DNA of 60,237 nucleotides, filler included, from Sphacelaria rigidula (GCA_964200075.2; 8 parts of 8 records of this genome joined end to end with filler, not necessarily neighbours in it); one strand, 5' to 3'. Positions 1 to 56,859 are shown, counted from the first letter of the whole stretch. Program-made: numbers and translations. The notes: generated by a model not told the origin, from the sequence alone.

Positions 1-667
1 ATTTCTCCCTCTAGCACGTCCCGTTCCTCCTTGTATAGTTCACATTTTGCCACTATATCACTTCTGCCTTCTATTGCTTTGCCACAGGAGCAATTCTGTC
101 GATCTACTTCCTCCTCCTGTCGACGACTGGTATATCTGTTCTTTCTGGCAGGTCTAGGTCCCCCACCCGAAATCGTAGTTTCATATTTTTCGCTGCGTCC
201 ATTGGACCATGCATTCACGTTTCCATCCCTATGCTCTTTCTCAACCCTCCGTATACTTTCGGGTGTTCTTCCTCATCTACTTTGCGTCTGAGCGCTCCTT
301 TTCCCCTCACTTCTATCATGTCTCTTACTCTTGTCTTATACCCCGTGCTTTCATCTATGAACAGTATTTCGCCTTGGTTACCTTCTATCTCCTTCCGTAC
401 TTTCTCGACTTCTCTCTCCCACCTTATTCCAGCCCGCCCTTTCATTACTTTCTTCCACACAGCCCTATCAGCTATAGCTGGCAATCTCTTTCCCTGCATG
501 TTCCTCACGCTATATTGCCACTTCAAGCTTTTTATGTCACTGTTTCAACTGGGTACATTCCCAGCTCTGCTCCCAAACCTGTATTACTAGTCGTTTTCGA
601 GCATCCGAGTATCTTCTTAGCTGCTGCCATCCGTACTGTTTCCAACTTCTCCAGGTTTCCCCCAAAT

Positions 668-1053
668 GCTCTTCTTGTTTCTTTGTCAAATGTTCCGCAC
701 GAACAAGTCAGTCGAATTACTTCATCACCGCCGCTTCGTACGTTCACTGACACCCTTTACAATCTTAACCGTTCGGATAATCTCCGGTGTCATCCTCTGT
801 GACAGGCCTGTCGATGTCTGGGTGACCTCTGGGGCGGACACCATCGTTATTATCTCGCACGTCTGGTCGAGATTGATGTCCAACGCTGCTACTGGCGCCC
901 CCTCCGTCACGTGTACTCGAGGGACGCACCATGATCAATGCATTTTGTGAAAGACGGATTGTCAAGGGTGGCAGTGAACGTACGAAGCGGCGGTGATAAA
1001 GTAATTCAACTGACTTGTCCGTGCGGACGATCGACGAAGTAACAAGAAGAACC
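668..1053. mobile_element. MITE with ~95-bp terminal inverted repeats inserted in the LINE
   Basis: ccgcacgaacaagtcagtcgaattacttcatcaccgccgcttcgtacgttcactg (695-749) is mirrored by cagtgaacgtacgaagcggcggtgataaagtaattcaactgacttgtccgtgcgg (972-1026). LINE sequence resumes on both sides. Confidence 0.85.
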
Positions 1054-2166
1054 AACTTCACGTTCGCCCTCCAATACTTCCCCTGCATATTCCAGATTTG
1101 GTACAATCACGCTCATCAGGATACATCTCTCAATTATAGTATTTATAATAAGTGCGAGTCTCTGAGGATCGCGCCCATCCTGCCTATCGGTGCCTTTCCC
1201 GTTTCTATTACTTTGTTGGTGTGTGCATCCCAAGGACCACTTTTTTTAAGATCTACGCCAAGGTATGTATACTGGCTAAGATCGGCAGTTCCTCTTTTCC
1301 CCACTTCCATTTGAACTCTACCAGATGTTCTTCATCTTCCTTACATACGAGTACCGCGCGCTTGTTGACGTTCGCTGTCACTCCATTTCCTAGTGTTTTC
1401 TGGCTCCCTTTCTATTTGTTTCTGCAATCCTTCTGGTGCTTCTGATATCCCCACAAACCATCCGCGAACATCAATCCTGATACAATATCCCCACCCACCT
1501 TGACTCGTTACTTCGCTGCTTCTATTGCTATTATCAGGTCATTTACGAATACCTTGAACAAAGTGGGTGATGACGTACATACACCCTTGTGCAACTCCTT
1601 TGAAAATATCTAAATATTTCGATATTTCCCCGTCCAGCATCATAGCACTTTTGGCACATTCTTTCATCTTCTTCACTATTCTCTACATCTTTCCTCTGAT
1701 CCCAGTTTCCCACAATTTCTTCCACGACCCATTTCTCCATACTGTGTCATAAGCCGTCTTTTACGTCGAGAACGAAACAGTACGTTGTCCGCCCGGTGTC
1801 TTTCCTACTCTGAACAATCTTACCTGTAGTGTACACATGATCTACGCAACTACGGTTTGGTCTAAATCCTGCTCGTCCCTTGCTGATTTTTTCTTTGTTT
1901 TCTAGCATCGTTCCTACTCTATCGTTCAGAATCTTACAGAATGTTTTCTCTGCGGTGCTCAGTAGCGTTATCCCTCTGTAATTTCCTGGGTCAGCCTTGT
2001 CTTCTTTGTTGAAAAGGTTGACTACTACTCCTTCTCTCCACCTCTTGGGGAGTGCACTCGTTTTCCCATATTCCATTATACAGCATAACCATAATGGCAA
2101 ATCATGCCCTCTCCCCCGTACTTTGGAAATTCGTTTGCTATTTCGTCTGTTCCTACTGCCTTTCTG

Positions 2167-2220
2167 AGAAAGGGATGGTCAAATGACTAAGGCAAGCAAC
2201 GAATGAGTACGCCCCCCCCC
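2167..2220 (+). mobile_element. Poly(C)-tailed micro-retroposon, truncated copy with 15-bp TSD
   Basis: agaaagggatggtcaaatgactaaggcaagcaacgaatgagtacg followed by a C-run, flanked by a perfect direct repeat cctactgcctttctg (2152-2166 and 2221-2235). Confidence 0.85.
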
Positions 2221-4548
2221 CCTACTGCCTTTCTGTTCTTGAGTTCAGCTACACACTCCCTGACTTCATCTCTGGTAAACTCTCTCTGCAGCTCTTTCGA
2301 GCCACTATCCTCCCATTTTGATGCCTCTACATTGGCCTCTGCCCACGCGTTGATTTAGTTTTTGGAATCCGTGTCGAACTTCGTGTTAGTCTTTGGTGTT
2401 CCTAGTTTACGGTAGTGCTCTATTAGCGCTTCTCTCTTCCTCTTCGAACTACTGACCATTTTACCGTTCTGTGCCCGTAATGTGGCTTTCTCCTTGTCTA
2501 TCTTTCCTGCCAGGTTTCCCACCACCACTTTTATCCCTACCGACATTTTTCCTTCCCGCCATCGAAATCTTCGTTTGTTTTGTTTACTACATCTTCCCGT
2601 ACTCCCTTCTCCTTACCTTTTATACTTGTGTACATGTGCTGCTATCTCTCCAAACCTCTACTGTATATCGTTCACCCTACTCTTCGATCCTGGGGGTATA
2701 TAGACGTTCCTTACGAAGAAGTCCTTCCTTCCAGGCTCTCCTGGCACCCTGATCCATGTGCTCTCGTCGAATTTCGTGTCTTCGATCACTTCTGTAATTC
2801 CACACAGATATTCCTTGACTGAGAATCCTACTCCCCCCGCTCCCATGCTCTTGGGGTTCTATCCCTTCCGCCACTTCCGTATCCATGCGTACTCTTCAAC
2901 GTTGCATCCTATTTCCGCCCTCTCTTTCTCCCATGATTATTTGATTCCCACTATGTCTAGGTCGCCTTTACTCACTTGTTGGGCTATCTCTATCCATTTG
3001 CGCTTGTCTGTGGCGAATCCACACACGCTCCACGATCCTATTCTCAACTTCCTTTCCGGATCGTTCCACTCTTCTTTTGTCTACTGCTCTCTCTCCGCCG
3101 CTTTTACTTTTACTTTCCCTCGCTTGGTTGTTCTTCCCGTTTCCGGTTTGGTCTTTGACTATTTACCTGGGGCCGCTATGTCCCCTCCCCTTGCCCTTCT
3201 GGGCATTTGTTCCTGCTTCTCTTTCCCTCCGTTTACCCGTGGACTACGTTCTAGATTTGGTGTTCCATTAGCTATCCATGCCCCCCATCCTACCCTTCTT
3301 ACCCATGCCGACACCTTACTTGTCTCTGTCCTTTCTCACTCCTTGTTCGCGTTCTGTTTTAGCGTGACTCGAAAGTGTTCTCCCTGCCCTTCTGCTTTTC
3401 CTCCTGCCAAACAGTATGGTCCTGCTTCATTGCATTCCTTTTTTAATTCTATCCTCGTCATATCGCTACATACTCCGAACGCCAGCACTACTCGTACTTT
3501 TCCATCCACTCTTTACTTCTCCATCCGCCCTTCCTTACCGTCTCTCTTTCGATCTCTTTTGAGGGAATCTCCAGCTTCTTCGTTTCAAGGCTTGTGGTGG
3601 GATACAGTCAAGGCACTGGGATATCCCAATCCTAGTACTCGTTGGGGGTCTGGCTCCTTTCAGCTCTTTTTCTGGCTCCTTTCAGTTCTTTTTCTGGCTC
3701 ACCGACACTACATAATGCCTCCAACATGGGCTCGTAGCCTGAAGCCAAGTTTAACACGTTTGACACAAGCACCCCACGTTTGTGCCAGGCGATCTTCATG
3801 GTGAACCATCCAGGTGTCCCACGATCGTATCTTCTATCTTCTTGCCCCGATACTGTACTGGTTACTTTCCTCCAGGAAGGTCATTTTCACCGTGTAAGGT
3901 TCAAGGACGGCTTGGATAACACAAGGTCTTACTCACATCGGGATGTCCCATACATTACTTCTTCCCACTCCGGGTACGGTTCACCATGGGTCGCTACTCC
4001 ACTGATGCTTCCAAGTAGAACTTCGCTGCCGAAAGCTTGGCCAACGATTCCCCCACACCTTATACCAGCTTCTATCCTTCAAGATCTCCAGAAGTCTACG
4101 TACCGCTTGGTGCTCCTTCTCGTGGGTCATATGGTCGGTCGTTGGTAAGGTGTTTGTTTCACGAGTGCAGCAGGTCTTGACATTCATGCCATGCATTGTC
4201 CACCCCTTCCGTTCATTAGACGCCTTTTGCACCTAATGTCGGAAATTTCAGGGAAAAGTCTGACCAGACTTCCACCGCCTAATGGAAACCGGTAAGGTTT
4301 TACGGTTATCCCACCACGAGACGCCAACCTCCATGTGAATTGACATGTCGGGGGTGATGACCCTATTCTATCCGTACGGGTTATATCTGCTGTACTTTTT
4401 ATTTGCATGTAAGCTGGTCAATCTTCACGCTATTACTTACACGTCTAGGTTTTGTTTTTATTTTCCTCTTATCTTCGCTATGATATGGGGGAAGTATCGC
4501 CGTTGTTTTCTGTTTTGACATGGAAAAATAGAACTGTTTTCCCTCGGT

Positions 4549-5143: not shown

Positions 5144-5834
5144 GCGGAGTACCAAAGAAAGCAGAACAAGAAAACGAAATGCAGAGAAGGATAAAAGAGA
5201 AAAAGGAGAAGAAGAAAAGAGGAAGGGAAGAAAACGCAGAGAATAAGGAAAAGGAAGGAGTAAAATTAAAAAAAAAGAAGGGGAAGAAAAAAAGAAGAAA
5301 TTGCCAGCTTTGTTATATCATGTCTATACCCATCTCGTGTTTTTCTGGAGGAAGCAAAACTGGTTGTTCAGGTCGTTGCACGTCTAGTGCGTCTGTCGGT
5401 CCGGGACTTTCTTTTGTCTACTAACGGTTTTAGTACAGATGCGGTGACAGTCTGTGCGTTTCATGTCTAGGTTCTGGTGGCTTTTTTTACTGCGCCGTTG
5501 CAACTCGACGCGAACCCAAGAGTCTAGAGGTGAGGGGGCGGTGAAGAGGGGAAGGGGTGTAGGAAGAAATTTGGTCACCAATCCAGTTATTTGTGTGCCG
5601 AATATGGCTCCTGTAGCTAGTGAAGCGAAGCTGCTTGCGGAGGAAGCCTTCACATTGCTGCTTCATGGTAACTTCTTGCCAATGCCTATTCCCCCCCCTC
5701 CCCAGTAAGGCCTAAAAGGGACGGGGATTCAGTACCTGAGAGATATCCTATTCTCCCTTTCCGCACCACTTCATTCTTTCTCGATGCAATCATGCACTCA
5801 CCATCATACTTCTGCTACAATACATTTCTTTCTA

Positions 5835-7269: not shown

Positions 7270-7340
7270 GTCTTCCACCAGCGGCTGGTGGACGAGTACG
7301 ACACGCCCGTCCTTCTCACAACTCCGACTGTCCCCTCCAT
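7270..7340 (+). CDS. GUF1: Next GUF1/LepA exon
   Basis: cag|GTC...AT|gtgagt. Encodes VFHQRLVDEYDTPVLLTTPTVPS, the in-phase continuation of the LepA motif (..F.QRL..EY.....T.PTV). Confidence 0.9.
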
Positions 7341-7443
7341 GTGAGTATGCGGCTACGCTACATACATAGCTTACGGTGCTCCCCTCCCCCCCCCCCACTC
7401 GCCCCATATGGTTAGACACCCATGAGGCAGTGTATAAGCCGTG

Positions 7444-13556: not shown

Positions 13557-14041
13557 AGGATCAACCCATTTCCCCCCGGTACGCCCGGTAGCGCTGTGGG
13601 GAGAAACTACGGGAAAAGGGGCCAGATGAGCGACCTCATGATCTGTATCAGTATACCAGCAAGGAGTAAATATTTACGTAGCTCATGGGCTGTCCGGCGT
13701 GTGAAATTAACCGCTGCATCCCTGTTCTTGCGAAACTAGCCTAGCATCTTGATGTGCCCTCTACCGCCGACGGGATGACTGGGGGAAGGACAAGGACATG
13801 GATGGTGATGGCATGTCCTTCTCACCTCGATATAAATAAATAACCGGACGTATTCGGAAGATGGTGAAGAAAACATTTTTTTTTTTCTGGACATTCTATT
13901 TAATTTTGCCACGCTGAAAAATCGCTGCAAAGCGGGTGAAAGTGAGGCCAAAAGGTTGGAAACAAGGTGGCTTTGAAAAAGTTGAGTCGACGTGTTACGT
14001 CTAGTTTCTGTTTTGATGCGAGATATTACACCCCCCCCAAC

Positions 14042-14079
14042 ACGACTAAGGCAAGCAACAAATGAGTACGCCCCCCCCC
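14042..14079 (+). mobile_element. Poly(C)-tailed micro-retroposon, truncated copy
   Basis: acgactaaggcaagcaacaaatgagtacg followed by a C-run, inserted next to a C-tract. Confidence 0.8.
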
Positions 14080-15086: not shown

Positions 15087-15141
15087 CCCTCCCCGCGCCC
15101 CTCCTCTCCGCCCCGCCGCCGCCCCCCCCCCCTTCCGTGTT

Positions 15142-15193
<52 letters not shown>

Positions 15194-20472: not shown

Positions 20473-21149
20473 CCGGAAGTGGGGAATTTTCGGTCGGCAT
20501 ACAAGAAAAAAAAAAAAACGAAATGGATGTGTAACGGACATTCCGGTTTGGTTCGGAAGGATATCGAGCCCTGTTGCGAACACTGCGGTATGGTCCGGAA
20601 GATCATGTACCGCTTGAATATCTTTCATACTTCTGCAAATACTCGAATTTCAGCCGGCATAGTCCTACAGTACACAACCTAATCCCCCCCCCCAAAAAAC
20701 AGCTGCTCTGAACCCCAAATGAGGCGTAGTCCATCTGAGGGGATTCGTGGTCGAAGGAGTAACCGTATTTCGTGAAATGTTTTCTTACTACAGTGTTCTT
20801 GTTCAAGCTGTACAAGGCTGCTTCTTATGGCACATCAAAATCACTCCCGCTCCGACTGAAAATTTTGCAATTTTTGTTGGCCCCAGAATCTGACTTTTTG
20901 TTCTTTTGTTTTCAAATATTTTCACCACTTCATATACCAATAAAAGCAAAAAAAAATGAGAGTTGCGGCGTCTTGGTGAAGGCATTTCAGCTGAATTTCA
21001 AATATGAATCCTGACGCGCGTGTGCGATCACGAAAATATGACCATCTGCAACCGCCGCAGCCAATGCGCGCGAAAATAGCGTTTCCGGATCTCGTCGGAG
21101 ACTGCGGAAGACCGACTACAAAATACATACATATATAGACCTGGGCGCT

Positions 21150-22629: not shown

Positions 22630-22649
22630 TATATGAAAAAAAAAATAAG

Positions 22650-22694
<45 letters not shown>

Positions 22695-23320
22695 GGGGGG
22701 GGGGAGAAAAAACAGTTGGGGATTCACATATACCTCAGGTATACCGTGTCAAAATTTCATGGAAAAAAACTTCAAATTGAGCAGTGAAATCGCGTTCTTC
22801 TGCCGAGAACCAGTTCACTTTGCGGCCGCGGCACAACTGACTGTAACCGTAAATGCGATTTCAGTCGTTTTTTCTCCCTAATTCCGCCACACATGCCACC
22901 CTCAACTCTCTATACTTCGCAGCTGACTGCAGTTCAGTATTTCGTTTGATGGGAACTTGTCAGATCGCGGTGCAACGTGAAGTGAAAGACGCGCGTTGAT
23001 TTGCAGATTGCCACGATGTGTGTTAGTACGCACAACTCGCGATAGATCATCAACTAGAACCGGTTGAAGGAAAGTCCGCTTCTTAGGCGGCCCAGCCTGT
23101 GATGTGAGGGATCTCTACGCTCTCGGACTACGGATATTGGAATTTTCTCTCGAGAGTTGAGAATTGGAAACTGATTATTCTAGAAAAAAAATCATCGAAC
23201 ATTCAAAGCGTATCATTCAAGATATCTTTTCGTAGTTTTTACAAAGGAAATAAAAGTGGATCCATATTTCGTAAATCTCCTTGAGCGGACCTACCCCGCC
23301 CCCCGCCCCCCGAAAAAAAA

Positions 23321-23870
23321 AGCCTGGTGCGGCGAAAACCCGATGTACTCCCTCCCGGCATTGTAGGGGGGCTGGTGAGGGTTGGCGATGGTGCTGTGGA
23401 ACAAGACACTCACTGTTTAAGCTAGGGAACCAGGTTACCGTTTTGTTTTGCGCGCTGCGCTTTCTTCGTCGCGGCAAGCATGATAGTGATCCAACAACAT
23501 CACAATGTGCAGGGTGGGAGAACCTCAACTCGGGAGAGAACTTTAACTCCGACCAAAGGAGATGATCATACGACGTAGTATTTACATGGTGAGACACCCA
23601 TAAGGCAGTGTGTAAACCATGGCTGTCTCGAAAATTGGCGATACCAGAAAATGAAGCAACTCAGTGGGGGCTGCCATCCAAATGCAAGATGATTAGTACG
23701 CTACGGGCCGAACAATCTTAGCAGGATGCAGCTCACCCTTCATGCGACTCGCCGGACACATCACGGCGCTTCGCGCTAGGTGATTGATTGCGAGCCTGGT
23801 CCGGCAAAAACCCGGCGTGCTCCCTACCGGCTGTATAGGGGTGCGAGGACAAGAGTCACATGACTTATGA
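23321..23870 (+). mobile_element. Second copy of the ~480-nt SINE-like element, with terminal direct repeat
   Basis: Collinear with 14450-14921; 23321-23372 repeats 23793-23841. Confidence 0.8.
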
Positions 23871-23916
23871 CATGCAAGATCATAAGTACACCCCCCCCAA
23901 CGAAATAACATAAATA

Positions 23917-29570: not shown

Positions 29571-30071
29571 CTGCAAATTACAAATTCGCTTCTCGGCTGG
29601 CCCAGCTCGTAGTATTCCGGGAAAATTTGGCGAGGTGTGAGATAATGTTGCTACTTTGGCCACAGACTGTCGCTACCGTGCGCTCGTGTATTGTATATAG
29701 ATGTGTGTGAGCGTTGCCGGCATTCGAGGTCATAGGGACAGGGCGGGCAAGGAGCAGAAGCAAATATACGAACCTCGCAAAATTTCGCCAGACTTTTCGA
29801 TTCTTGTCAGTGTTCGTTGATCATTTTTTTTTTTCAAGTTCAACAACAAAAAAAAGTGAATAATCATGGCAATTTTCGAAAAATTGCCCGCCGGGAGAAG
29901 GGGGGACGGGGGGGTCTCCGTGTCCGAAAAATATGTCTTGACACACCCTTGTTCCATCCGAGAAAATGGATCGACAAACCCACATGAGAGTAACCCCCCC
30001 TCCCCCCCCCCCCCCCCGCCCCCCCGATCGTTAAAACCTCTCTCAGGCATACAACAGCTCCATCTTCTCCC

Positions 30072-32898: not shown

Positions 32899-32992
32899 TG
32901 TTCCGTCTTAAAATGGATGCGTGGTCAAAGGATCAGACGGTTAAGGCGAGCAACTTATGAGCACGCCCCTGCCCCCCCCCCCCCCCCCCCCC
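32899..32992 (+). mobile_element. Poly(C)-tailed micro-retroposon, diverged full-length copy
   Basis: tgttccgtcttaaaatggatgcgtggtcaa...ttaaggcgagcaacttatgagcacg followed by a long C-run; cataaa on both flanks. Confidence 0.75.
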
Positions 32993-37713: not shown

Positions 37714-38499
37714 TTGGAGAGGGAGCATTTTTTTTTTTTTTTGGGGGGGGGGGAAGCACAGACGAAACAAAAACAGACAACAAAAGGAAGAAACCACCAG
37801 GAACAAAAGATGAGCAAAGCAGAGATGGGGACCAAAGACAAAGCTCTGCGTATCTGGCGTAGGCTATGATGAGTTGGTGTTGGTACTGTCGGTCCCAGGT
37901 GCTGTCGGTGCATCTTGGCCTGCAGCTTTCGCGTGCCGTATCGCTGCCTGTGATGTATTGTAATGATTTCAACGTCCTGCTGCGGAACGTAGGAACGTTC
38001 GCAATTCCTGTGCGCCTTTTTTTTTTTCTCAGCACAAATGTACCAAGAACACATCGGCAACACCATTTTAACATCTATCGTTTGGACAACCCGATACTTG
38101 AGTTGACCTACAGTTAATATCATTGGAAGAAGCGTTGGAACAGGCTCACATTCCAACTCGGATCACTTCCTTCTACTGGTAAAGGGACGGGGTGCGGTTT
38201 CCTCTCTGGCGTACAACGGTGTCTCTATAGTAGTCGACGTTTAAACCAAACGAATTCGATTGAATTTTTTTTTCCAGCCTTTTCGATCATTGCGTCTACT
38301 CGCGATTTCTGTTTGATCCCAAACTTCGGGAATCGCGAGACGTGAGTATCCGACCTAAATCTCGAAATATACATATTACCTGCGACCAACGTTGAACGAG
38401 CTACGGGCACACCAGTCGTTTGGGGTCCTATGAGTGTACAGCTCCCGGTTCTCGCTGTTTGATTTCTTCGCGCAACCGAGGCGATCCGGATTTTAATAG

Positions 38500-39365: not shown

Positions 39366-39434
39366 GCTCCGTCCCGGAAGGGACGCGTGGCCGATGGTCA
39401 AACGACTGAGGCAAGCAACAAATGATTCCCCCCC
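39366..39434 (+). mobile_element. Poly(C)-tailed micro-retroposon, variant copy
   Basis: gctccgtcccggaagggacgcgtggccgatggtcaaacgactgaggcaagcaacaaatga followed by a C-run. Confidence 0.8.
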
Positions 39435-40614
39435 GCCCGTCCCGCAAAAATCTGGCCTGCTCCGTCCCGGCTGTGTAGAGATGCGAGATCAATGACCAAA
39501 ATGACTACGGCATGCAAGATCATGAGCCCCCCCCCCCCCCCCCGTCGTTTGCGCCGCTGCATCCGGTTGACATTTCGTACTAGTTGTATGGAGTAAAATC
39601 TGGAGTCCACGCCGATACACAGAGCACACTTCACGGACTCGTGTCTGCTCCGCCCTCCACGGAATTAGTACATACGCACTGCACCACGCGCTGAAGTTCC
39701 CCTGTTCGCATACACGCCGCCCATCCTGATATTCGCACAGGCGCGCGCTGTATGAGACCTGGTGGGGACGAGAGTACTCGCTGAGCTTGTCATCATGGAA
39801 TGGGTGTCACTTAGATGGTGTATTTTTGGTCGCGGGCGGGGCGGGAGATCAGGCGGTGATTGGTTCCGCCGATGCTTACCGCCCACGCAGGGGCACTGGT
39901 GTACCGGTGAGATCTCGATGATTTTCGTTTCTTAGCCCGAAGCCGATGACGTTTATCGTTTATCCGAAGTGCACCTCTATGAGCGTGAAAGGTACGCCGA
40001 CGGGTACATCGTCCATTTTCGGTTTGGTGCTGCTGGAGCACCGGCGATCGCTTCTTCGTGGGCTTGTGTTCCTGTACCATCATGAATATTTGCTATCGTT
40101 TTTTGTAGCAGCGCTGATGTGCTCTTCAGTTTTCATCGTACCCTGTTACCTGGTTCCAGTTGGATTTGTTGACTTCCATGAATAAATCATTATTCCTTTT
40201 TTCACATCCGATGGTTCTTTGCGAAGCTCTCTATGGTCTGACGGCTAGTCGTAGCAGCGTACTGATGTATGTTTTGAAAACCGAATTTGCCCTCCGCTGT
40301 GTCATCCTTCCCGAGGCAAATGTTACGCGGAATACTGGCGGGGGCAGCATCGTCAACCTAAGGAATATGTACGTGACACTTTTTACGATAGCCCCCTCCA
40401 AAAACCAGCCCAAAAGTGTCGCGAATGAGGCGTTAATCTGCCGTCGGTTTATGTCAATGCCGTACGTACTGCGTGGTTCCACGAAGAATCAGAACCACAC
40501 TTGCTGTACTTCGTCTTGTACGTCTTATTTTTCGTCCGGCAGAGGAAGGCGCACACCTCTATTGACATTAATCACATATCCGAAACCCCTGGAACACCCT
40601 TCCTTTTTGCACAG

Positions 40615-40896: not shown

Positions 40897-41520
40897 GTAT
40901 GCTTACAAATCGGCAATATACGTGGATCTTTACTTATTTCGGTTGTCGGTGCGTGTGTGCACACGTGTGCGGGTGGTGTCTATTTGCTGAGTTTGCGGAT
41001 AACCCGTAGAGGGAGACGGCAGGTTATCTGTTGAAACTGCATCAATTTTGCATGAGAAAGGTGTGCATGATCCAGATGGACTACCCTCCTCGTGGTGTAA
41101 GGGCTGAGCGTTAGGTTCATCGTGGGCGGTGGTGGCCGTAAGATCCGACTCTTGATGAGGAAAGTGGAGGCACATGCCTGACCCCCCAACTGGAGAAATG
41201 TTGCATGCCTGCTGGTCGGCTATGTGTGTGTTATTTCGGTTTTCCTGTGTGTGCGTTCGTGCTTTCGTGCGTGCGTGTGTATTGGCTGGATTCCGCCCGA
41301 GGGTTGGTTTCGCAGTCTATGGCGAGGTGCTTGGGTCCCCGCACACACGTGTGGTGGTTTATACCCAATAATGATCCTGGTGCATCTCATCGTCTCTCCT
41401 TTCCCTCCCGCATTTCCTCCTATGCGGTTCTGCTCATGCATATTCTCGATTCCAGCACCACCTGCAGCAGCCGTAGCATGGCTTTGGTGCTGTTCACCAT
41501 TGTATCAGGATAAACCGTAG

Positions 41521-41726
41521 CAAGGGCAAGTCAAGCAGGGTATATTCAATTGCGGGGTGTTCCGAAAGTCGTACTGAAAGTACACAAATTGGGGTCGGGT
41601 GTTGGGGATTGCTTTCCAGTTATTTTCTGCGTACGACTTCTAACACCCCCTACCCCATTTTGATTACATGAAGTGCGACTTTGAAAATACCCTGCATTTG
41701 ACTGTACCCTACTTGACCTGCCCTTG
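41521..41726. mobile_element. hAT-type MITE in intron
   Basis: caagggcaagtcaagcagggta ... taccctacttgacctgcccttg; imperfect 8-bp TSD aaccgtag/gaacgtag. Confidence 0.75.
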
Positions 41727-41806
41727 GAACGTAGCCCCCTGATGCTCTTTTGTGATGTTCTCAGTCGTTCTGTACTGCTTTTTTATATATATCTTGCCCG
41801 TTACAG

Positions 41807-41928
41807 ATCCAGTGTCCCGGAGTTCGCGTGACGGTTATCGACGATCGAGAAGGGAGAGACATGCCCCTGCTCAGGGTGGAAGTGGGCGGGCTTGATATGA
41901 CCCATGAGAACGGACCCGGCATCGCAAG
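41807..41928 (+). CDS. VPS13: Exon of VPS13-like lipid transfer protein
   Basis: ttacag|...AG|gt. Encodes IQCPGVRVTVIDDREGRDMPLLRVEVGGL, resembling the VPS13 ..IDD....D.PL motif; in phase with the preceding exon. Not present in the supplied ORF track. Confidence 0.6.
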
Positions 41929-43015
41929 GTTGAAATTATTTGTTACATTGTGGTCACTCCTTCGCGCGTGATGTCGCGTATATCACCGAGTAGTGTTTTA
42001 TATCAGCCATAGTCAGAACTGTGTGGTGGGTTGTACCCCATAATGATGCTCTTGGTCGTATTCCCCGTAGAGCTGTGAAAATTCGGAGCGTTATTGATCG
42101 GAGTTTCAGTATGTGCTCTCTTTCCTGGAAGTGATACACTTCGGGATTTTTTTTCGAGAATCTGCAGCAGTGCGGTATTGTGAAACAGTACAATCGTGCG
42201 TCGCAAGGAGTTTGAGTTTCACTGTGATTTTTACTGAGCGAATGTGCAGGTTGAGATTTGGCGTTTGTTTCGCAAGCGAACCTGTTGCCAACTCAGCAGA
42301 CTGTCGCTTGGCCAAAATACACGTCGGCCAAAGGCCTGCGTTACGTGCCACGATGCACAGCACTGTCGAATCCACGACACACCCATCATCAGAAGCATGG
42401 CACAAAAACGCATCCTGCCTCATATTTTATACTTTTCGGTTCATTTCGTTAGTCTCAATCTTCCATGGAATTCCGGCACTTGTGGGTGTAATTTCCTCGT
42501 CGCCTGCGATCTTCGACTCCGTCATTGATGTAGCAATCTCACTCCCTGGTGAACGTTGTAGTCAAAAGCGGTATACTGAGTCGGAGGATACCTATTCCCT
42601 TCCCCCTGAAACCTTACGCGTCGCCACTGTATCAGCCCTGAGGTGGCAGCTGCCATCCTTCATGTAGGCGCACGTCCCCGGAGGTCACGGTGTGTACGTG
42701 TTTCACTCCCCCTTGTTGAGCGAAACATATCTTATACACGCCCTATACATCCAAAAATGTTATTCACCTCCGCAGTGACGCAGAGGCAGCAGGAAGAAGC
42801 GGTTTGAGAAACACAGGATTGGTCGCAAGTCCGCGGCGAGGATCTAGGTGGTAAGAAGGTTGGGAAAGCAATTATTTTGGGGAGGCCCTCCTCGCCAGCA
42901 AACGATGAGCTTCATGACGTTTACCCCACCAGGATATAAGATATGTAACAGGTTTTTCGTGTGATATAGGGAAGAAACGCAATGAGCGCCGGAATGTTGG
43001 AGGTTGGAGGAACGG

Positions 43016-43182
43016 TGCTCCGTCTCGAAAGAGATGCGTGGTCAATGGTCGAACGACTGAGGCAAGCAACAGATGTGTACGCCCCCCCTTCCCCTTCCCC
43101 CAGAGAGTGCTCCGTCTCGAAAGGGATGCGTGGTCAATGGTCAAACGACTAAGGCATGCAACAAATGAGTACGCCCCCCCCC
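43016..43182 (+). mobile_element. Two tandem full-length poly(C)-tailed micro-retroposons
   Basis: Copies at 43016-43088 and 43108-43182, each tgctccgtctcgaaag...tacg followed by a C-run. Confidence 0.9.
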
Positions 43183-45155
43183 GTGGGACCCCCGATGGGG
43201 TTGGCGTCGGTTGGCAACGACGCTATAAAACACGCCACTCACTGCGTTAGTTAGGCAACCAGGTTACCGGTTTTCTTTTGCATGCTTGCGTTTTTCTGTG
43301 GTAAGCATAATGGCAGTCGAGTTACATCATGCTGTGCGGCGTGGGAGAACCTCAACTCCGCACAATGGGGATGGTCGTACTATGTGTAGTGTTTAACCCT
43401 TTTGGAACCCATTGACGATTTTGGTTTCGTGAATCGGCATCATTTTGACTCGAAAATGACTGAAAATGATGTCGATTTACAAAAACAGAAATCCAAAGTT
43501 GTGTCCTGTAAGGTACGGGTACGTTATGTAGAGTATGAGATTTCATACAGAACTTACAGAACTGTCGGGTACCGGTATGAAAGTCTTCCAGAAATTTCAG
43601 AACTCGTCGGGTACGGTATGGGAGGCTTACAGAAACCGGTAGCGGCAATCGGGAAACTCTTTCAGGGCATACCCGCCCCTCAAGTTAGGGTAATTTTTTT
43701 GTACAGAACTCACAGAACTGTCGGGTAAGGGTATGGGAGGCTTACAGAAGTCACAGAAATTGTCGGGTAGGGTATGGAGGTTGCAGAAAACCGTACCTGC
43801 AACCGGATATCTTATCAAAAGCATACCCGTGCCCCCCGGGAACGGTACGGAAGGCTTACAGAGATTACAGAACTATCGGGTACCGGTATGAAGGTCTTAC
43901 AGAGATTACAGAACTGTTGGGTACAGTAAATACCCGGCAAAATTCCCCGGGTATACAGACAACCGTACCCCACAAAACATGGCCTTGGTATTATCATCAC
44001 CCCTGTTTTGGGACCCACGTCACTACAGCAGTGGCGAATTACAGATGACAGTGCACGAAAACTCTGAACGGCTCCACGGGGTTGATAGAGAAAGACTACA
44101 CGAACAATCGCATAAGTACATGTACACGAGATCGTCAGCATCTATCGGCTGCCCGTTCTCTGGAAGCCCTTCGGCACGCGACAAAATCGCCGACGGCCTT
44201 GACGACTTTCGGTCGCAGCTCGTAGTCTGTGCTGTACATGTCGATAACGGCCGGGGTTTGATGACCACGACACAACTCATCATCAACATCGATGACGTGG
44301 GTCTTGCTACTTGATCCCCTGGTGGAGCAGATGAACCGCCCCCGCTCGAGCCACCACTCGAGTCTGGGGGTGATCCATCCCGACGATCTGCAGTGCTGCT
44401 CATGTTTCGTGTCCCCACTCAGCGGTACCTCGTTTACCGTTAGATCCCAGACTCAAGAACTTTTCAACATTGAATTATTGTTGGTGTGCAGTTTTGAATG
44501 AAGGAGTTGAGTGGGTTGATCGATGGGAGGTACATGTTCAGGTCATGAGGTTGTGTTTGGATTTAACCTATATCAGTACCTCCCCAAGGTATACACCTGT
44601 GCTCATACCTGCAATCGGGTATATCTTTAACGGTATACCCTAACCCCGGGTAGGGGTATGGGAGGCTTACAGAGCTTACAGAACTGTCGGGTACCGATAC
44701 TGGATGAAAGTCTTACAGAAATTCCAGAACTTGTCGGGTATGGTATGGGAGGCTTACAAAAAACTGGTCCCGGCAATCGGGTATTTCTTTCAAGAGCATA
44801 CCCGCGCTCGGGGCACGGGTAAACACTCTGTACAGAACTAACAGAACTGTCGGGTAGGGTATGGAGGTTGCACGGAAAACTGTACCCGCAATCAGGTATC
44901 TTATCAAGAGCGTACCCGTGCCCCACGGTGACGGTGCGGGAGTCTTACAGAGATTACAGAATTATCGGGTAAGGGTATGAAAGTCTTACAGAAATTACAG
45001 CATTGTCGAGTACGGTAAATATCCGGCAAAATACCCCGGGTATACAGAAAACCGTACCCTACAGAATATAACCTTGCAGAAATCGTCAATGGGTTCCAAA
45101 AGGGATAAATGGTGAGACACCCATGAGGCAGTGTATAAGCCGTGGCTGTCTCTGG
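43183..45155 (+). mobile_element. Third copy of the ~480-nt SINE-like element, split by a piggyBac-type insertion
   Basis: Homology to 14450-14690 over 43183-43396, resuming at 45105-45155. Confidence 0.8.
43397..45104. mobile_element. Non-autonomous piggyBac-like element carrying internal minisatellite blocks
   Basis: TTAA|cccttttggaacccattgacgattt ... aaatcgtcaatgggttccaaaaggg|ATAA (25-bp perfect TIR). Blocks 43500-43985 and 44630-45075 are direct repeats built of cttacagaactgtcgggtaccggtatg-like units. Confidence 0.9.
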
Positions 45156-46327: not shown

Positions 46328-46663
46328 GAGTCATGCTACGATAGGGGGGGTGTTTGATTCCACGAAAAAATGGGCTTATACACGCTTCAGTCGACCTGAC
46401 ACATTCGCGGTGCGCTTGTATTTGGGTATAAGCGGTGTCAAGTAGTATGTATGAGCGTTATTCTCCAGAAGCAAGCGCATTCGAACAACCGTTGCTGCTA
46501 TCAACGACGATTTCAAGTAGAATTTCGTGGAAGAAAACGGTCCAAAACATCCCCCCCCTCTGTCGTATGCTCCGTCTCGAAAGGGATGCGTGGTCAATGG
46601 TCAAACGACTAAGGCAAGCAACAAATGAGTACGCCCCCCCCCCCCTCTATCGTAGCATGACTC
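46328..46663. mobile_element. MITE with GAG...CTC termini (Sola-like) inserted in copia RT
   Basis: TIR gagtcatgctacgataggggggg / cccctctatcgtagcatgactc; imperfect 4-bp TSD tacc/cacc; removing it restores copia KPGIASAVRA. Related copy at 56610-56859. Confidence 0.8.
46568..46645 (+). mobile_element. Poly(C)-tailed micro-retroposon nested in the MITE TIR
   Basis: Full 66-nt consensus plus C-run; duplication of ccctct(g/a)tcgta on both sides. Confidence 0.9.
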
Positions 46664-49600
46664 CACCGGGCTTTGTCTGGTTCGCCATCTACATCAAGCT
46701 CCCCACGATCTCATGGAAAGACACATCCACTACAGTCTCCTCGCTTGCAAACCTGAGGTCTAAGGAAAGGGTAGCGGGAATGGGGCTAGTCTTCGAGACG
46801 TTGAAATCATTTAGCACACTCCTACTGAGTTGGGTTTGTGAAATGTGTGAAGTACCTTTCTCCCGGTCCCTTTTGTACTCACTTCCCGAGACATACCACT
46901 CCTCCTCCCCGAGATGTTTTGTGGTGAAAATCTCTGATTCAGTGCATCGACTATCACTTTGGTCACCTCCTCAGTAGCTGCTATCATGATATCGTCCACG
47001 TGAAAGGCCATCATTGCCACAACGCCACCAGCAACCCTCAGTCAAAACACACAGGGATCTACCAAGCACTGCTCGAAACCACACTTCACCAGCGTTGTCG
47101 ACAGCAGTTGATACCATACCCGACCACTCTGCTTCAATCCGTACAAGGCGTTTTTGCGTCGTACCACCTTACGAGATACTGATTCACAACTGAGGGGCAG
47201 GCGCAAGTAGATGTTGGTGTCCAACTCCGACTGAATGAAAGCCTGGCCTACATCCAAGTGCCTCAAATCCCAGTCTAGCTCACATGCCATAGCCGCCATC
47301 AACCTATTTAAAGTAGCAGATGCCGTAGCGGCGAATGCCTCAAAGTAGTCTACTCCCTCCACCTGACTGGACCCCATAGCTTCCATACGGGCTTTCACCC
47401 GGTCAACCATATCATGTGAATCACCAATCCACTTGTATACCCACTTAGCGCCCACGACGTTGCACCCCTCTGGAATGTCAGTTACCTTCACAAACGTTCC
47501 GGCAGCCATAAGCCCATCGAACTCTACCTTCATCGCCTTCATCTACAGATCCGAGTATTGTGATGGACACGCCGCAGGGTACGACAACGGCTACGGCCCC
47601 GCTTTCCTGACGAGACATTTACGGAGCTCGCCCGGTTTACGTGTAAACTCTTGTACCGCCAGCAGACCATAGCTTATTTTGCCCCCCTTTATTGGGCCCT
47701 AACGTAGTCACGAGCGCAGACGATTCTCGATTGAGCGATCGCGTCTGCGCTCTGGTTCGCCCAAGCTCCTCGCCATTTCCAGATCCAACCAGATGTGACT
47801 CAAGTTGGCACTCCGCAGTCCGTGCTGCCGTTGGAAGTGTAAAACTTTCGTCCGATGAAGACGAGTCATTCCCCTCGACTGAGAGGTTACTGTCGGCAGA
47901 CGACCCACTACTCACCGATGACAAATAAACACCTGAAAAAGCAGTTGTGTTGTCGGGGGCCGGCTTATTTTCATCGCCAAGAGAACCCCGCTCAACTTCA
48001 TCACCACTCTCTGTACTCTTCGTTGGAGATGTCACTCGACGCTGATGGGGGGTCTCTCTCCCCAGTAGCGGTGATGGAGTCGGTGGAGCAGAATCGAAAT
48101 CATCTAGCCCTCCCGGCTCTGGATTGCCTGCCAGCTCCGACGTCTCCCCCGGCAGTGACGTCCCTCCCAGCTCCGATGCCCCTGCCAGCTTCGGCTAAGC
48201 TGGCTGCTGCAGTTGTACCGGTGGCTCCACCATGACCGGCGCGCCTCCCAGGTGACGTCTCTTGTCTCCACTACCTTATTTTCCCGCGTCAGCATCCTCG
48301 ACGAATCGCGGGGGTGGTCGATGCCGGGCCCAAGGTAGATGCTACTCTTGCACTTGGGGAACGACGATCCGTTTCAGCGGCAATAACCCGGACGAAGAAA
48401 CGGATGTGATGATGTAGGTGCTGCCGTACCGTGCCACATCTCCTACGGCGACTTGTTACCTAGGTTGGACGTCGTCGCGGTGTGATTCAGGGTGTCACAC
48501 GCCCAGTACATCGCCTCAGCCCAGAGAGTCTCCGATAGTGGCAGCTCGACATTTGGAAAGAGAACAGGGGCTTGGATCTGAGCGGCAAGTGCGGCGTTTT
48601 GAATCATACCTGAAGCTCTCCCGGCAACGCCGTTCAAGTTCGGACACTTCGCGCTGGCGAATTCCTCCTAGTGCCTGAACACGCCTTCAAAACCACCACC
48701 GAAAAAATCTCCTCCATCGTCAGACGTAACTAACAACTATTATTACTTCCGAAGGTACACCATCCGCACGTACATCAGCCGACAAGTTCCCGCAGGCATC
48801 AGCGATACCAGACTTACGTTCGAAAAAGTATACCCATGCGTACCGGGTGAAAACCGTCCCCCACTATCATGACATATTTCTTCCGTAGCAACGAAGGAGT
48901 TCCCTTAGGACCACTGAGGTCAACAAGAACTCTTTCTAGCTCTTGTGAAGCACGAGATTTCGTGCTGTCTGTGATCGGCTTTCCGGGAACCCTTTGCCAT
49001 AGAGCATCCTGTACACTATCTCAAGTTACCCAGTAACTCTATACTAAGCGATTTTGTTGTCTCTCTCAGCAGAAATTCATTGGCATGCCCCTGCAGGCAG
49101 TGGAAACGTTGATGCCTTCGGCAGTTTCACCCGAGTCAGCACTGCCGGGGGTTATCACAGCAAACGCCAAGGGAACAGGTTGGTCAGGTTGTACTGTACT
49201 TGGAAAGCCTCGGGAACCAACAAGGGACAGAGGATGTAGTCATCATGAGGATCAACCCTTCTACCATACGTCGAGTATCCAGATCCATCACTCCAAAACC
49301 TAAGGTGTCCATCCAGTAGGATCACACTCACATCCGAGTCGTCAGTCGAGAAGCCTACTCCTCGTGTCTGCGCAGTCACGGCTGAGGATAGGTTTAAAGC
49401 TAAATCGGGTACGTGAGCGACCTTCCCAAGCCTCACTCTTACTCCTCCAGCCTTATTGGGGAAAACTACAGTCAACGACCCATAGCTCTCAACGTTGATG
49501 AGGGTGTCACTACCGATCTTCACTTTGTCCTCTGATGGTTACACGTCACGGAGAAATTCAGCCTATCTGGTGATATGAAATGTTGCTCCACTATCAGCTA

Positions 49601-52321: not shown

Positions 52322-52696
52322 GTATACGCAGTGTTCAGTGAAAAATGCGCACGGCGGCCTGATACCGTTTTCTGTGAGAGCGGACAGGGCGTGGTTCGTG
52401 GAAGGCATCAGTGAGTTGGTTCCATGGGATAGCGATGAACGTGACGGGCCAGTTCGGCTGTGGTTTGGTTGTTTTTCTCCCAGCATGTTTGTTTCTGTGG
52501 CGACATGCATCATGATATCATTACTACATTTTCATCGCCCGTGATTCATTCGGCATGAGCCATGCGTACACCTTTCGAGTCATCGTACGGTAGGCGCGTG
52601 GGCAGGGGAGGGGGGGGGGGGGGAGTTTACTCAGGATTTTGCATGCCGTAGCCATACGACCATTGACCTTGCATAGATGGGGAAAGCCCGCGGGTG

Positions 52697-53288: not shown

Positions 53289-53755
53289 ATGGTTCGATAC
53301 TCACCACCACCTAGGTAGGAAGATGCCAGTTCAGTGGGCACCGGGGGCTAGCGGGCCCAAACACAATCATTAGTATCGAAGCCATTGAGCTCGACGTTAC
53401 CAGGGTAGAGGCAGTCATGTTCGCAGCGTTGCGCTGCATACTCGATGAGCTGCTCAGACGCCAGAGCAACATAGTTGCATGGAGGACAAGCTTACATTGC
53501 GTGAAGACCAAAGACTCCTCTGAGATAGCAGACCGTGATGGCGTAGATGCTCTTGTATTAATGGCGTACAGGCTAACTTGTGCTTTGCTAGTTGAGATGC
53601 ATAGTTCAAAACGCTATGACACGTGAGGGCACACGGGGGGGCACACGGCCATATTCTAGCGCACAATGTAGTATGCCCCATCAGATACCAAGCATGCCAA
53701 AGTATGACACATGGATCCTAGTCGACTGGAGAATGACCAATAAATCTGTAACATC
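53289..53755 (+). repeat. Left arm of a ~470-bp inverted duplication
   Basis: High-identity reverse complement of 59548-60017. Confidence 0.9.
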
Positions 53756-54689
53756 CCCCTAGCCGTATTTATATGGCTAAACACAAATTCATTGGAGGGC
53801 TGGAAGGGCCAGAACAAAAACAAAGCCTGGGCATCATACGCCTGAAAGTCAAACGAGAAAAACCTGCTGAATAACAGTACAGGGGAAAACTCGTTGCAGA
53901 TCTAATGAGTGGGTAAACCCTGATAAGCAGGGGAAAACTCCATCCGTTAGGAAAGGAAAAAAATCCATAACGCCCTTTCCAACGATAGAAACAGCAGACA
54001 TGTACGGTCGCTGTCGTTTTTCCGGGATCTCAGTTAGACTGGAGAACGATCGGCTAGTGAGCTTGATCGCGCGTCGACACCCTGGATCATTTACACTGGA
54101 TTCTGGGGTAGTGCAGGGCTTGGACCTCGCTAAAAGCAACCTTTCCACGAACTGATCAATAATAGTTACAGGAGTGCAGCTTTGGAGGGGTGCTCTTCTG
54201 TAACTACTGAGGCCTATTCTACTGGAACTAGCCCACGCGCCTTGGCTCACACATGTGCTCGTTTGTTACCAAATGGGGAGCAATCAATAACAAAGCGACA
54301 AAAGAAAAAGACAAGAACACTCGAAATTCATGACTGAAGCGTACGGTAGCAGCGATATATAGTTACTCATTCCCTTATTTCATCACCCATTTCTCTCGAA
54401 ATAATATCATATACCACATCACACAACAGCTATTCGTAAACGTCCTTGGCTCCAATCTCTCTTTGGTTCCTCCGTTCCAGCCTTGGGCGCTCCAGTTAGA
54501 TAGCTCTTTCCAGTCTCCATCTTCGTATCGTACTCGCCGAAAGGAATTCCCATAATCATACACGTGGTGCTCCAGCTCGGCACTGCTATAGCCTTTCCAG
54601 GAGGTAGAACCTATGGGCAAAAGCTTCAAGGCATCACTACATGTGAAAGCGGGGTGCTTCGAGTGCGATGGCGGGGTCGAAGAAACTGG

Positions 54690-55189
54690 GGGGTGATGCA
54701 GGTGCAAAAGGCTCATGACGCAGTATTGAGCAATGAATTGTGGGAAAATATATGAGGAAGTGGGATCAAAGGAAAGGTGTGGACGATGAAGACGACAGAA
54801 ATGTGCCAAAAGTGCGATGATGCTAGATAGGGAAATATCGAAATATTTCGATATTTCGCAAGGAGTCGCACCAGGATGTACGTTATGACCCTCTCTACTC
54901 GAGGTATTCTTTGATGACCTGATACTAGCATTAGATATTGCAAAGCAAGGGGTAAAGTTGCTGAAGGGGTTGGGAACAGTGCAGCTGGAAGCAGCTAAAG
55001 GAATACTTTGACGCGGAAACGGTGCAAGTGGCAGCAGGTAAAAGGATACTTGGATGAAATACAAATAGTGAAGAAAATGAAACCAGTACAGATAGCAACA
55101 GCTCAGAAAATACTTGGATGCAGTGAAGTTGGTGAGGGAGTTGGAAACAGTACAGATGACAGCAGCTAGGGAAATTATTTGGATGCTCG
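54690..55189 (+). mobile_element. LINE RT fragments (family of 1-3760)
   Basis: VQKAHDAV...GIKGKVW and SKYFDISQGVAPGCTL match the RT region at ~1560-1770. Confidence 0.8.
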
Positions 55190-55212
55190 AAACAAATGAG
55201 TACGCCCCCCCC
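55190..55212 (+). mobile_element. Poly(C)-tailed micro-retroposon, extremely truncated
   Basis: aaacaaatgagtacg followed by a C-run. Confidence 0.65.
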
Positions 55213-55329
55213 CTCCCCCCTCTAAGTCTTCCCCTTTCCCCCACCCGTCAGTGCCTGAAGTAACGTGGAGTTCTCGACAATCTAGCACTGTCACAAATTC
55301 AGGCAATGCAGTCCAACACGGGGAAAAAT

Positions 55330-56290: not shown

Positions 56291-56609
56291 CGTTCTTATG
56301 GTGGAAGGCCGCGTTGTTTTGTGGAAAAGGGTGAGCACGCGAGACAGCAACCAGCAAAAAATATGGAACTCGTGCTTCGCCCCCCCCAAGGGGGTTCAGC
56401 GACCACATCAGCGGAATGAGTGTCTGGAAACCATATGTAGGGTCTGTAAGAATTGTCACAGACACGGTATGTTGTCGCGCTGTCAACTTGCATGGTACGC
56501 TGGGCATGAAGGGCAAAAAGATAAAGCAGGGAAACTAAGTCTGCGTACTGCATAAGTAATGACAAACATTGCACGGAAATATGTGTGGTTGCATGGTATC
56601 GAAAGCCAA

Positions 56610-56859
56610 GAGTCATCCTACGATAGGGGGGGGGGTATTTGGTTGCACGAAAAAAAAGGGTGATAAGTGTGTCAGATGACCTGCAACACTCGCGATGTAC
56701 CTGTATTGGGTTCAAAACGGTGTCGATCGGTATGAATGAGCGTTATGTATCTGTAACAAGCTCGTTCGAGCAACCATTGCTGATTTCAGCGGCGATTTGT
56801 CTTGGAACTTCGTGCAAGAAGTGGCCCAAAATACCCCCCCCCCTATCGTAGGATTACTC
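56610..56859. mobile_element. MITE with GAG...CTC termini (Sola-like), uninterrupted copy
   Basis: gagtcatcctacgataggggggggg ... ccccccccctatcgtaggattactc; flanks ccaa/ccga; internally similar to 46328-46663. Confidence 0.8.

Follow-up and report, generated by a model that had tools for sequence, protein, structure and literature searches.

We analysed a stretch of 60,237 nucleotides from Sphacelaria rigidula (GCA_964200075.2), referred to here as the window, which consists of eight pieces of about 7,443 nt each, not necessarily neighbours in the genome, joined by spacers of the form N44-TTAATTAATTAA-N44. A preliminary description of this DNA had singled out a 66-nt repeat with a C-run at its end, at 2152-2235, as a micro-retroposon in its own right. 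Our results indicated that this 66-mer is probably the 3' terminal module of an autonomous long interspersed nuclear element (LINE) that encodes an endonuclease and a reverse transcriptase (RT) and ends in oligo(C), with a tail-only form as a second layer. As to that second layer, the evidence leans towards a discrete, abundant and non-autonomous unit, made of the terminal 66-67 nt (about 88-92 nt in a second subfamily) and mobilised in trans by the LINE.

The LINE was identified by scanning metagenome contigs with a 19-nt motif of the repeat 3' end plus five C's, which returned 26 loci, two of which (L002 and L010) carried the full 66-mer and a C-run. The other 24 were set aside as chance matches, 22 from one unrelated locus and two singletons; the 22 (L001, L003, L005-L009 and L012-L026) represent one nearly identical, widespread conserved sequence in which the 19-nt motif occurs by chance. 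The same 19-nt motif found no loci among viral contigs. In L002 and L010, all 2,000 nt upstream of the 66-mer could be aligned with each other (80.6% identity) and made up a single open frame of 668 aa, which extends into the 66-mer and is not closed at the 5' edge of the locus. The encoded C-terminus reads …GAPSRK(R/G)CVVNGQ(T/M)TKASNK, with the TGA stop inside AAATGAGTACG. The 66-mer comprises the last 19 codons of this open reading frame (ORF), the TGA stop and 5 nt (GTACG), and the C-run follows directly, which means that the LINE, as read from these two loci, is practically devoid of a 3' untranslated region (UTR; 5 nt). We regard the 66-mer as the probable terminus of the LINE because it is continuous and in frame with the RT ORF in both loci. 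The search that had been suggested for an RT-encoding element ending in the same sequence was thus successful, and the earlier statement that the repeat has no ORF proved misleading, the 66-mer being the in-frame end of one.

The L010 ORF matched RVT_1 (E 3e-31) and had 353 protein relatives at E≤1e-10, the best named ones coming from Ectocarpus sp. (99% of the query aligned at 59% identity). Together with the label 'algae metagenome' on the sequencing runs, these relatives suggest that the host of the LINE is a brown alga or a related ochrophyte. A (V/E)(V/I/E)(N/D/Y)G motif, which is encoded inside the 66-mer, was located at most 12 aa from the C-terminus in 33 of 121 relatives, and in two read-through relatives (P0053 and, from Ectocarpus, P0082) a C-run is translated as prolines. 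These data bear on the proposal that the repeat is an independent, ORF-less micro-retroposon family that borrows an RT and belongs to no LINE. Most copies indeed have no adjoining RT gene and the unit appears discrete and abundant, yet the 66-mer is in frame with the 668-aa RT ORF in two of two independent loci, is contiguous with LINE sequence in one window copy (copy E1, below) and encodes a C-terminal motif conserved across the LINE group. A stand-alone family, as first described, is therefore extremely improbable. The preliminary description had also allowed that the sequence might be the end of a known LINE, which held to the extent that it is a LINE end; we found no publication that annotates it.

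The flagged repeat copy (copy A) and its surroundings comprise the following features.

2152..2166, plus strand: left target-site duplication (TSD) of copy A (CCTACTGCCTTTCTG); an identical 15-mer lies at 2221-2235
2167..2211, plus strand: copy A, 5'-truncated LINE 3' end (blastn; nhmmer E 3.9e-12; alignment)
2212..2222, plus strand: C11 run of copy A, its oligo(C) tail; the upstream target has CC only
2221..2235, plus strand: right TSD of copy A (CCTACTGCCTTTCTG), 15/15 with the left one
1..3488, minus strand: older degenerate LINE copy with endonuclease and RT regions (L002/L010 match, tblastn, RVT_1)

The perfect 15-bp TSD originally reported for this copy was reproduced, with CCTACTGCCTTTCTG at 2152-2166 and 2221-2235 agreeing at 15 of 15 positions, a count that includes the last two C's of C11, which can be read equally well as the start of the right TSD. 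Copy A retains unit positions ~12-21 and 30-66, ~8-11 nt having been lost in between. When 2167-2236 was removed in silico, the tblastn alignment to the homologue P0005 went from 24 gaps to one. Because this excision restores a nearly gapless protein alignment, copy A is confirmed as a clean insertion with a 15-bp duplication. The surrounding element matched L002/L010 over window positions 2146..10 (minus strand) at 79-82% identity. In tblastn searches with the LINE ORF and its longer relatives, the RT region was placed at 3-2549 (minus) and the endonuclease region at 2679-3488 (minus), while the L010 ORF alone covered 3-2128 (minus). The RVT_1 match at 1750-2178 (minus; E 9.7e-07) scored 29.1 bits, slightly below the cut-off of 29.6, and the 3' end of this copy is missing, cut by the start of the piece. 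By these alignments, copy A lies within an older copy of the same LINE that has the opposite orientation.

The longer relatives consist of a single ORF of ~930-1,160 aa with Exo_endo_phos or Exo_endo_phos_2 ahead of RVT_1. Three of them (P0034, P0050 and P0054) combine PF03372/PF14529 with RVT_1, and their endonuclease parts match window 2679-3488 (minus), upstream of the RT, which is indirect evidence that the window LINE would carry an apurinic/apyrimidinic (AP) endonuclease N-terminal to its RT. No Pfam match of its own was obtained for the endonuclease in the window copy, which is too decayed. The clade is most likely RTE or RTE-X, judging only from the single ORF with both activities and the 5-nt UTR. 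Two observations count against so simple an assignment: PDB matches of the ORF are about equal for R2 (1.5e-18) and L1 ORF2p (2e-17), and the ORF carries a CX1CX8H X4C motif, which to our knowledge is not typical of RTE. As a limit on the overall interpretation, no full-length LINE with both ends was found, L002 and L010 stopping at the 2-kb flank and the window copy being without its 3' end.

A blastn search with the 66-mer of copy F (46568-46633) recovered all eight previously listed sites, all on the plus strand. An nhmmer profile search (E<0.01) detected 11 copies, namely these eight and three further ones at 23827-23897 and 39458-39537 (second subfamily) and at 52674-52621 (minus strand). 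The repeat is therefore spread over several pieces, as had been stated, but its extent is seven of the eight pieces and not six. Consistent with a real signal, a 28-nt consensus core gave four matches at ≤3 mismatches in the window and none in 100 shuffles. Ten of the 11 copies, or eight of nine independent loci, lie on the plus strand, a marginal bias to which we attach no weight. All 11 copies terminate on their 3' side in a C-run of 7-26, and such tails make up 10 of the 26 plus-strand C-runs of at least 7 in the window. The copies other than copy A, with the sites that bear on them, are as follows.

14040..14079, plus strand: copy B, last ~31 nt + C9, with a C8 run directly upstream at 14031-14038 (blastn, nhmmer)
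23799..23898, plus strand: copy H, second subfamily, ~92 nt + C8 (77% over 101 nt to 39438-39543; nhmmer E 8.8e-06)
29950..30025, plus strand: candidate extra copy, TGTTCC…ATGAGAGTAA + C7TC16GC7 (by eye only; nhmmer silent at E≤10)
32899..32992, plus strand: copy C, diverged full 66-nt unit + C-rich tail (C21 run), flanks forming an approximate duplication (…CATAAA) (blastn, nhmmer)
39366..39434, plus strand: copy D, unit starting 1 nt past the common start + C7 (blastn, nhmmer, alignment)
39438..39543, plus strand: copy D2, second subfamily, ~89 nt + C17 (alignment, nhmmer)
42936..43088, plus strand: copy E1, last ~165 nt of the LINE + C7, lacking 25 nt internally (LINE alignment, tblastn)
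43107..43182, plus strand: copy E2, 66/67-nt unit + C9, 98.5% identical to copy F
46551..46567, plus strand: left duplication of copy F, C8 + TCTGTCGTA, in the right inverted repeat of an element resembling a miniature inverted-repeat transposable element (MITE)
46568..46645, plus strand: copy F, consensus 66-nt unit + C12 (blastn)
46646..46654, plus strand: right duplication of copy F, non-C part TCTATCGTA, 1 mismatch (comparison with the left duplication)
52610..52690, minus strand: copy J, subfamily variant + C14 (nhmmer E 9e-07)
54672..55213, plus strand: copy G, LINE copy with internal deletions, its body joined to the last 9-14 nt + C9 (LINE alignment, tblastn)
56834..56850, plus strand: paralogous empty site, the MITE-like element without the insertion, C10 + TATCGTA (alignment)

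Copies D2 and H, 77% identical over 101 nt, define the second subfamily. Copy D sits at the 5' edge of copy D2, behind a C7 run, and copy E2 lies 19 nt behind the tail of copy E1. Copy E1 is the only window copy that runs 5' past the 66-nt point, and the 25 letters it lacks are present in a sequencing-run contig. Read in the frame of the LINE ORF, copy F encodes APSRKGCVVNGQTTKASNK and then a stop. Copy J, the only one on the minus strand, has a piece end near its 5' side. The site at 55190, counted at first as a 14-nt copy of its own, turned out to be the tail of LINE copy G (54672-55213), in which ~860 nt are missing at a joint with AACAA microhomology. The internal 5' starts of the copies at 32899, 39366, 43108 and 46568 coincide within 1 nt, those at 2167 and 14040 are shorter, and the copy at 43016 is longer, reaching 42936 in LINE sequence. 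The reported one-sided truncation was thus correct for the C-run end, which every copy retains, but the opposite end is not simply variable, four copies sharing one start.

Copy F was compared with its paralogous empty site, where 46329-46567 aligned to 56611-56850 at 73% and 46638-46664 to 56834-56860; the duplication by this comparison is C8-TCTGTCGTA, 17 nt with one mismatch. The host MITE-like element, ~250-310 bp at 46329-46663 and 56611-56860, has 23-bp terminal inverted repeats with a G7-10/C8-10 run (GAGTCATGCTACGATAG(n) … C(n)TATCGTAGCATGACTC); copy F splits one of its two copies, which share 73% identity. A link between the L010 3' flank and the inverted repeat at copy F amounted to 9-11 nt plus the C-run (E 0.01-0.04) and was not relied on.

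LINE 3' ends are usually poly(A) or an A-rich repeat, although this is not obligatory. Here, the tail was a C-run in all 11 window copies and in both metagenome copies, and neither poly(A) nor an A-rich end was found in them. The tail also exceeded what the target offered, with C11 in copy A where the target had CC and C12 in copy F where it had C8-10; the element thus supplies C's itself, and, as initially proposed, its oligo(C) 3' end is genuine. The accompanying suggestion that the C's are non-templated dC added at the end of the cDNA did not stand, as cDNA synthesis begins at the very end that bears the C-run, and this run merges with the C's that open the TSD. Tails are 7-12 C's long in young copies and 14-26 in diverged ones, a difference that slippage after insertion would produce.

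At every readable junction, C's come before the non-C part of the duplication, namely CC (A), CCC (C), CCCC (E1), C7 (D), C8 (F) and C8 (B), and these C's are in turn preceded by A/T. Runs of C7-8 therefore occur at three of six readable junctions and non-tail C-runs of at least 7 are rare in the window, from which we infer a strong enrichment. One explanation is that the C-run is the target and not the tail, the LINE being specific for (C)n/(G)n tracts in the manner of microsatellite-specific LINEs. The C7-8 upstream of copies B, D and F, the C10 already present at the empty site of copy F and the long C-run consensus of the sequencing contigs that break off before 43108 (below) would agree with it. 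It conflicts with copy A, where C11 stands against CC in the target and a non-C duplication of 13 nt is perfect, with copy F, which duplicates nine non-C bases, and with copies C and E1, which have only CCC and CCCC upstream; we consider this explanation very unlikely.

TSD lengths are roughly 10-17 bp, and 5' truncation fell at a different point in each of copies A, B and E1. Retroposition by target-primed reverse transcription (TPRT), also the initial interpretation, is supported because of the TSDs and of the two insertions that were checked, by an uninterrupted protein alignment in copy A and by the paralogous empty site in copy F. In the mechanism we propose, the endonuclease would nick the bottom strand beside a G-run, the top-strand site being (A/T)(A/T)|C(n), and the G's thereby released would serve as primer for reverse transcription by base-pairing with the oligo(C) at the end of the RNA. 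This would be the L1 scheme, in which TTTT/AA pairs with poly(A), with C:G replacing A:T. Because G-run priming pairs with oligo(C), existing C-tails may be preferred targets, which would explain the adjacent and head-to-tail copies. The C's of the tail could be copied from the donor locus or added by slippage extension of the RT. Two facts tell against taking this scheme too far, namely that the nick-site rule is drawn from six junctions and that no duplication could be recognised at copies E2 and H, while the one at copy B consists of C's only.

Other C-runs of 8-11, at 7340-7396, 20650-20693, 5691-5698 and 56380-56387, showed no match to the unit profile. In front of the run at 7386 lies …ATGTGAGTATGCGG…, faintly like the LINE terminus, and such runs could be the tails of more distant LINE families.

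For the boundaries of the short form, Logan contigs of the sequencing runs X1, X3 and X4 (DNA-like) and X5 (guessed to be RNA) were aligned to window 41500-44500, with copy E2 as the reference. Four of the five main-family window copies that reach the common start begin there within 1 nt (C, D, E2 and F), and the second subfamily (D2 and H) has a common start of its own, ~88-92 nt from the tail. Loose contig ends accumulated at the same point. At 43107 they numbered 556, 439 and 550 contigs in X1, X3 and X4, respectively, with a consensus equal to the upstream LINE sequence (agreement 0.43-0.49), and at 43108 they numbered 411, 350 and 391, with a long C-run as the consensus. The other strong loose ends were at the C-run at 43182 (804, 487 and 825) and at 43008, the site of the private deletion of copy E1, and none of the best-supported ones listed fell inside the unit. 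Joints going back 72-76 nt, equivalent to head-to-tail units with ~9 C's between them, were present in 118, 47 and 106 contigs. The unit was very uniform, with one variant inside it among those listed. The repeat profile of X5 resembled that of the DNA runs and was uninformative on expression. Because of the common start in four of five copies, the separate start of the second subfamily and the Logan break points, we favour, if only somewhat, a discrete tail-only unit mobilised in trans, which agrees with the abundant, very short form described initially. Summed contig depth in X1 was 5.4 million over E2, 1.0 million over the unit of E1, 0.18 million over the adjacent upstream LINE and 28.5 over the unique flank, although such depth cannot be equated with copy number, may be raised by poly-C/G artefacts and, at 85% likeness, underestimates diverged LINE sequence. 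At the window's density of 11 copies in 59.5 kb, a genome of a few hundred Mb would contain tens of thousands of copies, if not more.

Besides these limits on depth, further observations speak against a discrete unit. About one third to one half of the loose ends at 43107 run on into the LINE, and the break point is partly an artefact of the reference. Between L002 and L010, the body is 80.3% identical and the last 66 nt agree at 64 positions, yet the last 99 nt have only three mismatches; strong conservation spans ~99 nt, and its edge differs from that of the 66-nt unit. We accordingly rejected the idea that the unit boundary is the boundary of a conserved module, as conservation reaches ~-99. 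Single-sequence folds were no better than shuffles (z-scores -1.6 to +1.6), and none of 11 pairs covaried in the consensus fold.

The same evidence can be read as plain dead-on-arrival 5'-truncated LINE copies, in which the start at -66/-67 is a truncation hot spot caused by RT stalling or preferred 5' joining. The short copies have the same sequence as the LINE end without diagnostic substitutions, copies A, B and E1 are truncated elsewhere, many of the 43107 loose ends continue into the LINE, and LINEs of Ectocarpus are described as frequently 5' truncated (PMC12477816). Such truncation accounts less readily for four of five window copies ending at one nucleotide and a second subfamily with its own common start, for head-to-tail units in 47-118 contigs per run, and for a ~30-fold depth step between the unit and the adjoining LINE sequence; nor was a stable structure predicted at the boundary that would stall the RT. 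We regard a hot spot as possible but doubtful.

Another possibility is that the LINE end gave rise to a ~75-bp satellite (unit + ~C9), which accounts for most of the abundance and multiplied as DNA through unequal exchange or replication, retroposition having produced only the smaller part of the copies. This process is compatible with a tail-only unit, and it would fit the 72-76-nt joints in 118, 47 and 106 contigs (X1, X3 and X4), the C-run directly upstream of many units and their uniformity. In the window, however, no perfect tandem pair is present, E1/E2 and D/D2 adjoining each other but differing in length or subfamily, and nine separate loci in 59.5 kb indicate dispersal, with solo copies carrying TSDs. 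A satellite as the main source is in our view unlikely.

If the tail-only unit is discrete, its fixed 5' end may stem from a protein-bound or nuclease-resistant end-piece, from an internal start site or from endonucleolytic processing. The split between 43107 and 43108 could reflect a cap-derived G that is present or absent, although the LINE has a G there anyway. The sequence of the unit is that of the last 66 nt of the LINE. Judged as a short interspersed nuclear element (SINE), the unit has the 3' tail in common with its partner LINE but no head derived from an RNA polymerase III (pol III) transcript with an internal promoter. ARAGORN found no tRNA gene in the window, in line with the lack of a recognisable tRNA element reported before, and Rfam gave no match at gathering level over the whole window. 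At E≤10, Rfam yielded no ribozyme family on 46400-46800, around copy F, and one chance microRNA match. By eye, there was no complement to unit positions 1-7 for a P1 helix of the hepatitis delta virus (HDV) type, although variable HDV-like folds can escape such inspection. A tRNA-like or ribozyme reading was dropped, as nothing emerged beyond a possible terminal helix of 5-6 bp. A Pfam search of 182 stop-to-stop frames of at least 90 aa returned RVT_1 (near the cut-off), RVT_2, Pol_BBD and a weak glycine-rich match, and nothing else.

Taken one step further, the LINE RT would prime on G-tracts, and its 66-nt recognition module would have escaped as a micro-retroposon with neither head nor body, the shortest sort of non-autonomous retroposon, present in ~10^4-10^5 copies, seeding most C/G tracts of the genome, building arrays by insertion into its own tails and owing its fixed 5' end to a discrete small RNA. 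We put this full scenario forward tentatively. The small RNA might be the nuclease-protected footprint of a ribonucleoprotein, the product of an internal start or a processed RNA of tRNA size, and the ends of such a tRNA-sized RNA could pair (GUGCUC/GAGUAC) ahead of a G-CCC… overhang.

The internal LINE motif AATGAG(T/C)(A/G)CC, on the minus strand of L010 and L002 ~95-107 nt upstream of the 3' end and at window 42980-42990 in copy E1, resembles the LINE terminus AATGAGTACGCC in another reading frame, and may trace back to an old duplication of the terminal module.

Mammalian L1 and Alu combine an AP-type endonuclease and an RT with variable TSDs of ~10-17 bp, 5' truncation and copies that land in old tails. 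The present element resembles them in its AP-type endonuclease and RT, its ~10-17 bp TSDs, its 5' truncation and its insertion into old tails; in both, the duplication starts with the homopolymer base of the tail, which implies pairing of primer and tail. It differs in having oligo(C) of ~7-12 nt in place of poly(A), with a G-run as the presumed primer, in an ORF stop 5 nt before the tail with neither 3' UTR nor polyadenylation signal, and in a dependent element that has no pol III head. In the Drosophila I factor, retrotransposition itself produces the (TAA)n 3' repeats, and this simple-repeat tail of modest, regenerated length is likewise not poly(A), whereas the tail here is a mononucleotide C-run. 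Waldo, Mino, Kibi and Koshi are R1-clade LINEs that target microsatellites, and with them the element has in common a simple-sequence tract at insertion junctions. In contrast to that class, the tail here occurs where the target has no such tract (copy A) and non-repeat bases are duplicated (A and F), so that the element very probably falls outside it.

Stringent LINE/SINE pairs with a common 3' tail of ~60 nt have been described for eel UnaL2/UnaSINE1 and zebrafish L2 (PMC1636434, PMC4176376). Similar to these, the present LINE has a short conserved 3' module that is probably recognised by the RT (97% identity in the last 66-99 nt against 80% in the body) and that its partner carries. Unlike them, the partner is the module alone, the tail is a C-run and not a short A/T-rich repeat, and no stem-loop is supported. 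By analogy, a combination of L1/Alu-like TPRT with a conserved 3' module of the stringent type may serve as a working comparison. The closest published system we found is the Ectocarpus repeat library, from the same host group as the window and the source of the best named protein relatives (PMC12477816). Its LINE categories are RTE, RTE-X, CRE and 'Unknown' (PMC12477816, Table 1), and its RTE-X/RTE LINEs are accompanied by LINE-dependent non-autonomous families such as RTEX-N1_Ec32 (PMC12477816). That Ectocarpus element is ~600 bp long with an unknown 5' part, whereas the unit here is 66 nt of LINE tail only (PMC12477816). The main text of the Ectocarpus paper names no tail sequence, and its Fig. 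1C or supplementary notes may show a C-run terminus (PMC12477816). For Saccharina, the genome paper names Jockey, RTE, RTEX, L1 and CRE among the LINEs. Full-text literature searches found no description of a C-tailed LINE, which is weak evidence of absence given that 'poly(C)' cannot be matched as a term. The unusual points are the C:G logic of tail and primer and the 66-nt tail-only unit.

Several other features of the window were noted. Directly behind copy E2, 43217-44500 is a very high-copy repeat with a depth of 10^4-10^6 against 28.5 in the unique flank (X1) and many internal joints. Copia-type fragments lie at 47045-47542 (minus) and 49158-49538 (minus), with RVT_2 at E 4.9e-29 and Pol_BBD at E 1.4e-05. 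The sequences 53613-53660 and 59640-59690 are inverted relative to each other and separated by ~6 kb; both include a G7/C7 run (…GTGAGGGCACACGGGGGGGCACACGG… and its complement), and they may be the ends of a large transposon. Three pieces open with homopolymers, at 15122-15192 (C11 then G49), 22630-22704 (an A-run then G18) and 37714-37753 (a T-run then G11), which look like contig-end or sequencing artefacts.

For annotation, the unit accounts for a large share of the C/G homopolymer runs (10 of the 26 mentioned above), and it is short enough for repeat pipelines to miss or mislabel it, occurring near genes and inside other transposons. Should the C-run terminus already be present in curated brown-alga repeat libraries, the value of these results would lie in the correct annotation of the copies reported here. 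If 66 nt suffice for mobilisation, few if any cis-elements known for LINEs would be smaller, and the unit could serve as a tag for RT-based insertion tools. If the priming model is true, the LINE would be a natural counterpart of L1 with C:G for A:T, in which the long-debated role of tail complementarity in TPRT could be tested directly by base swaps in tail and target.

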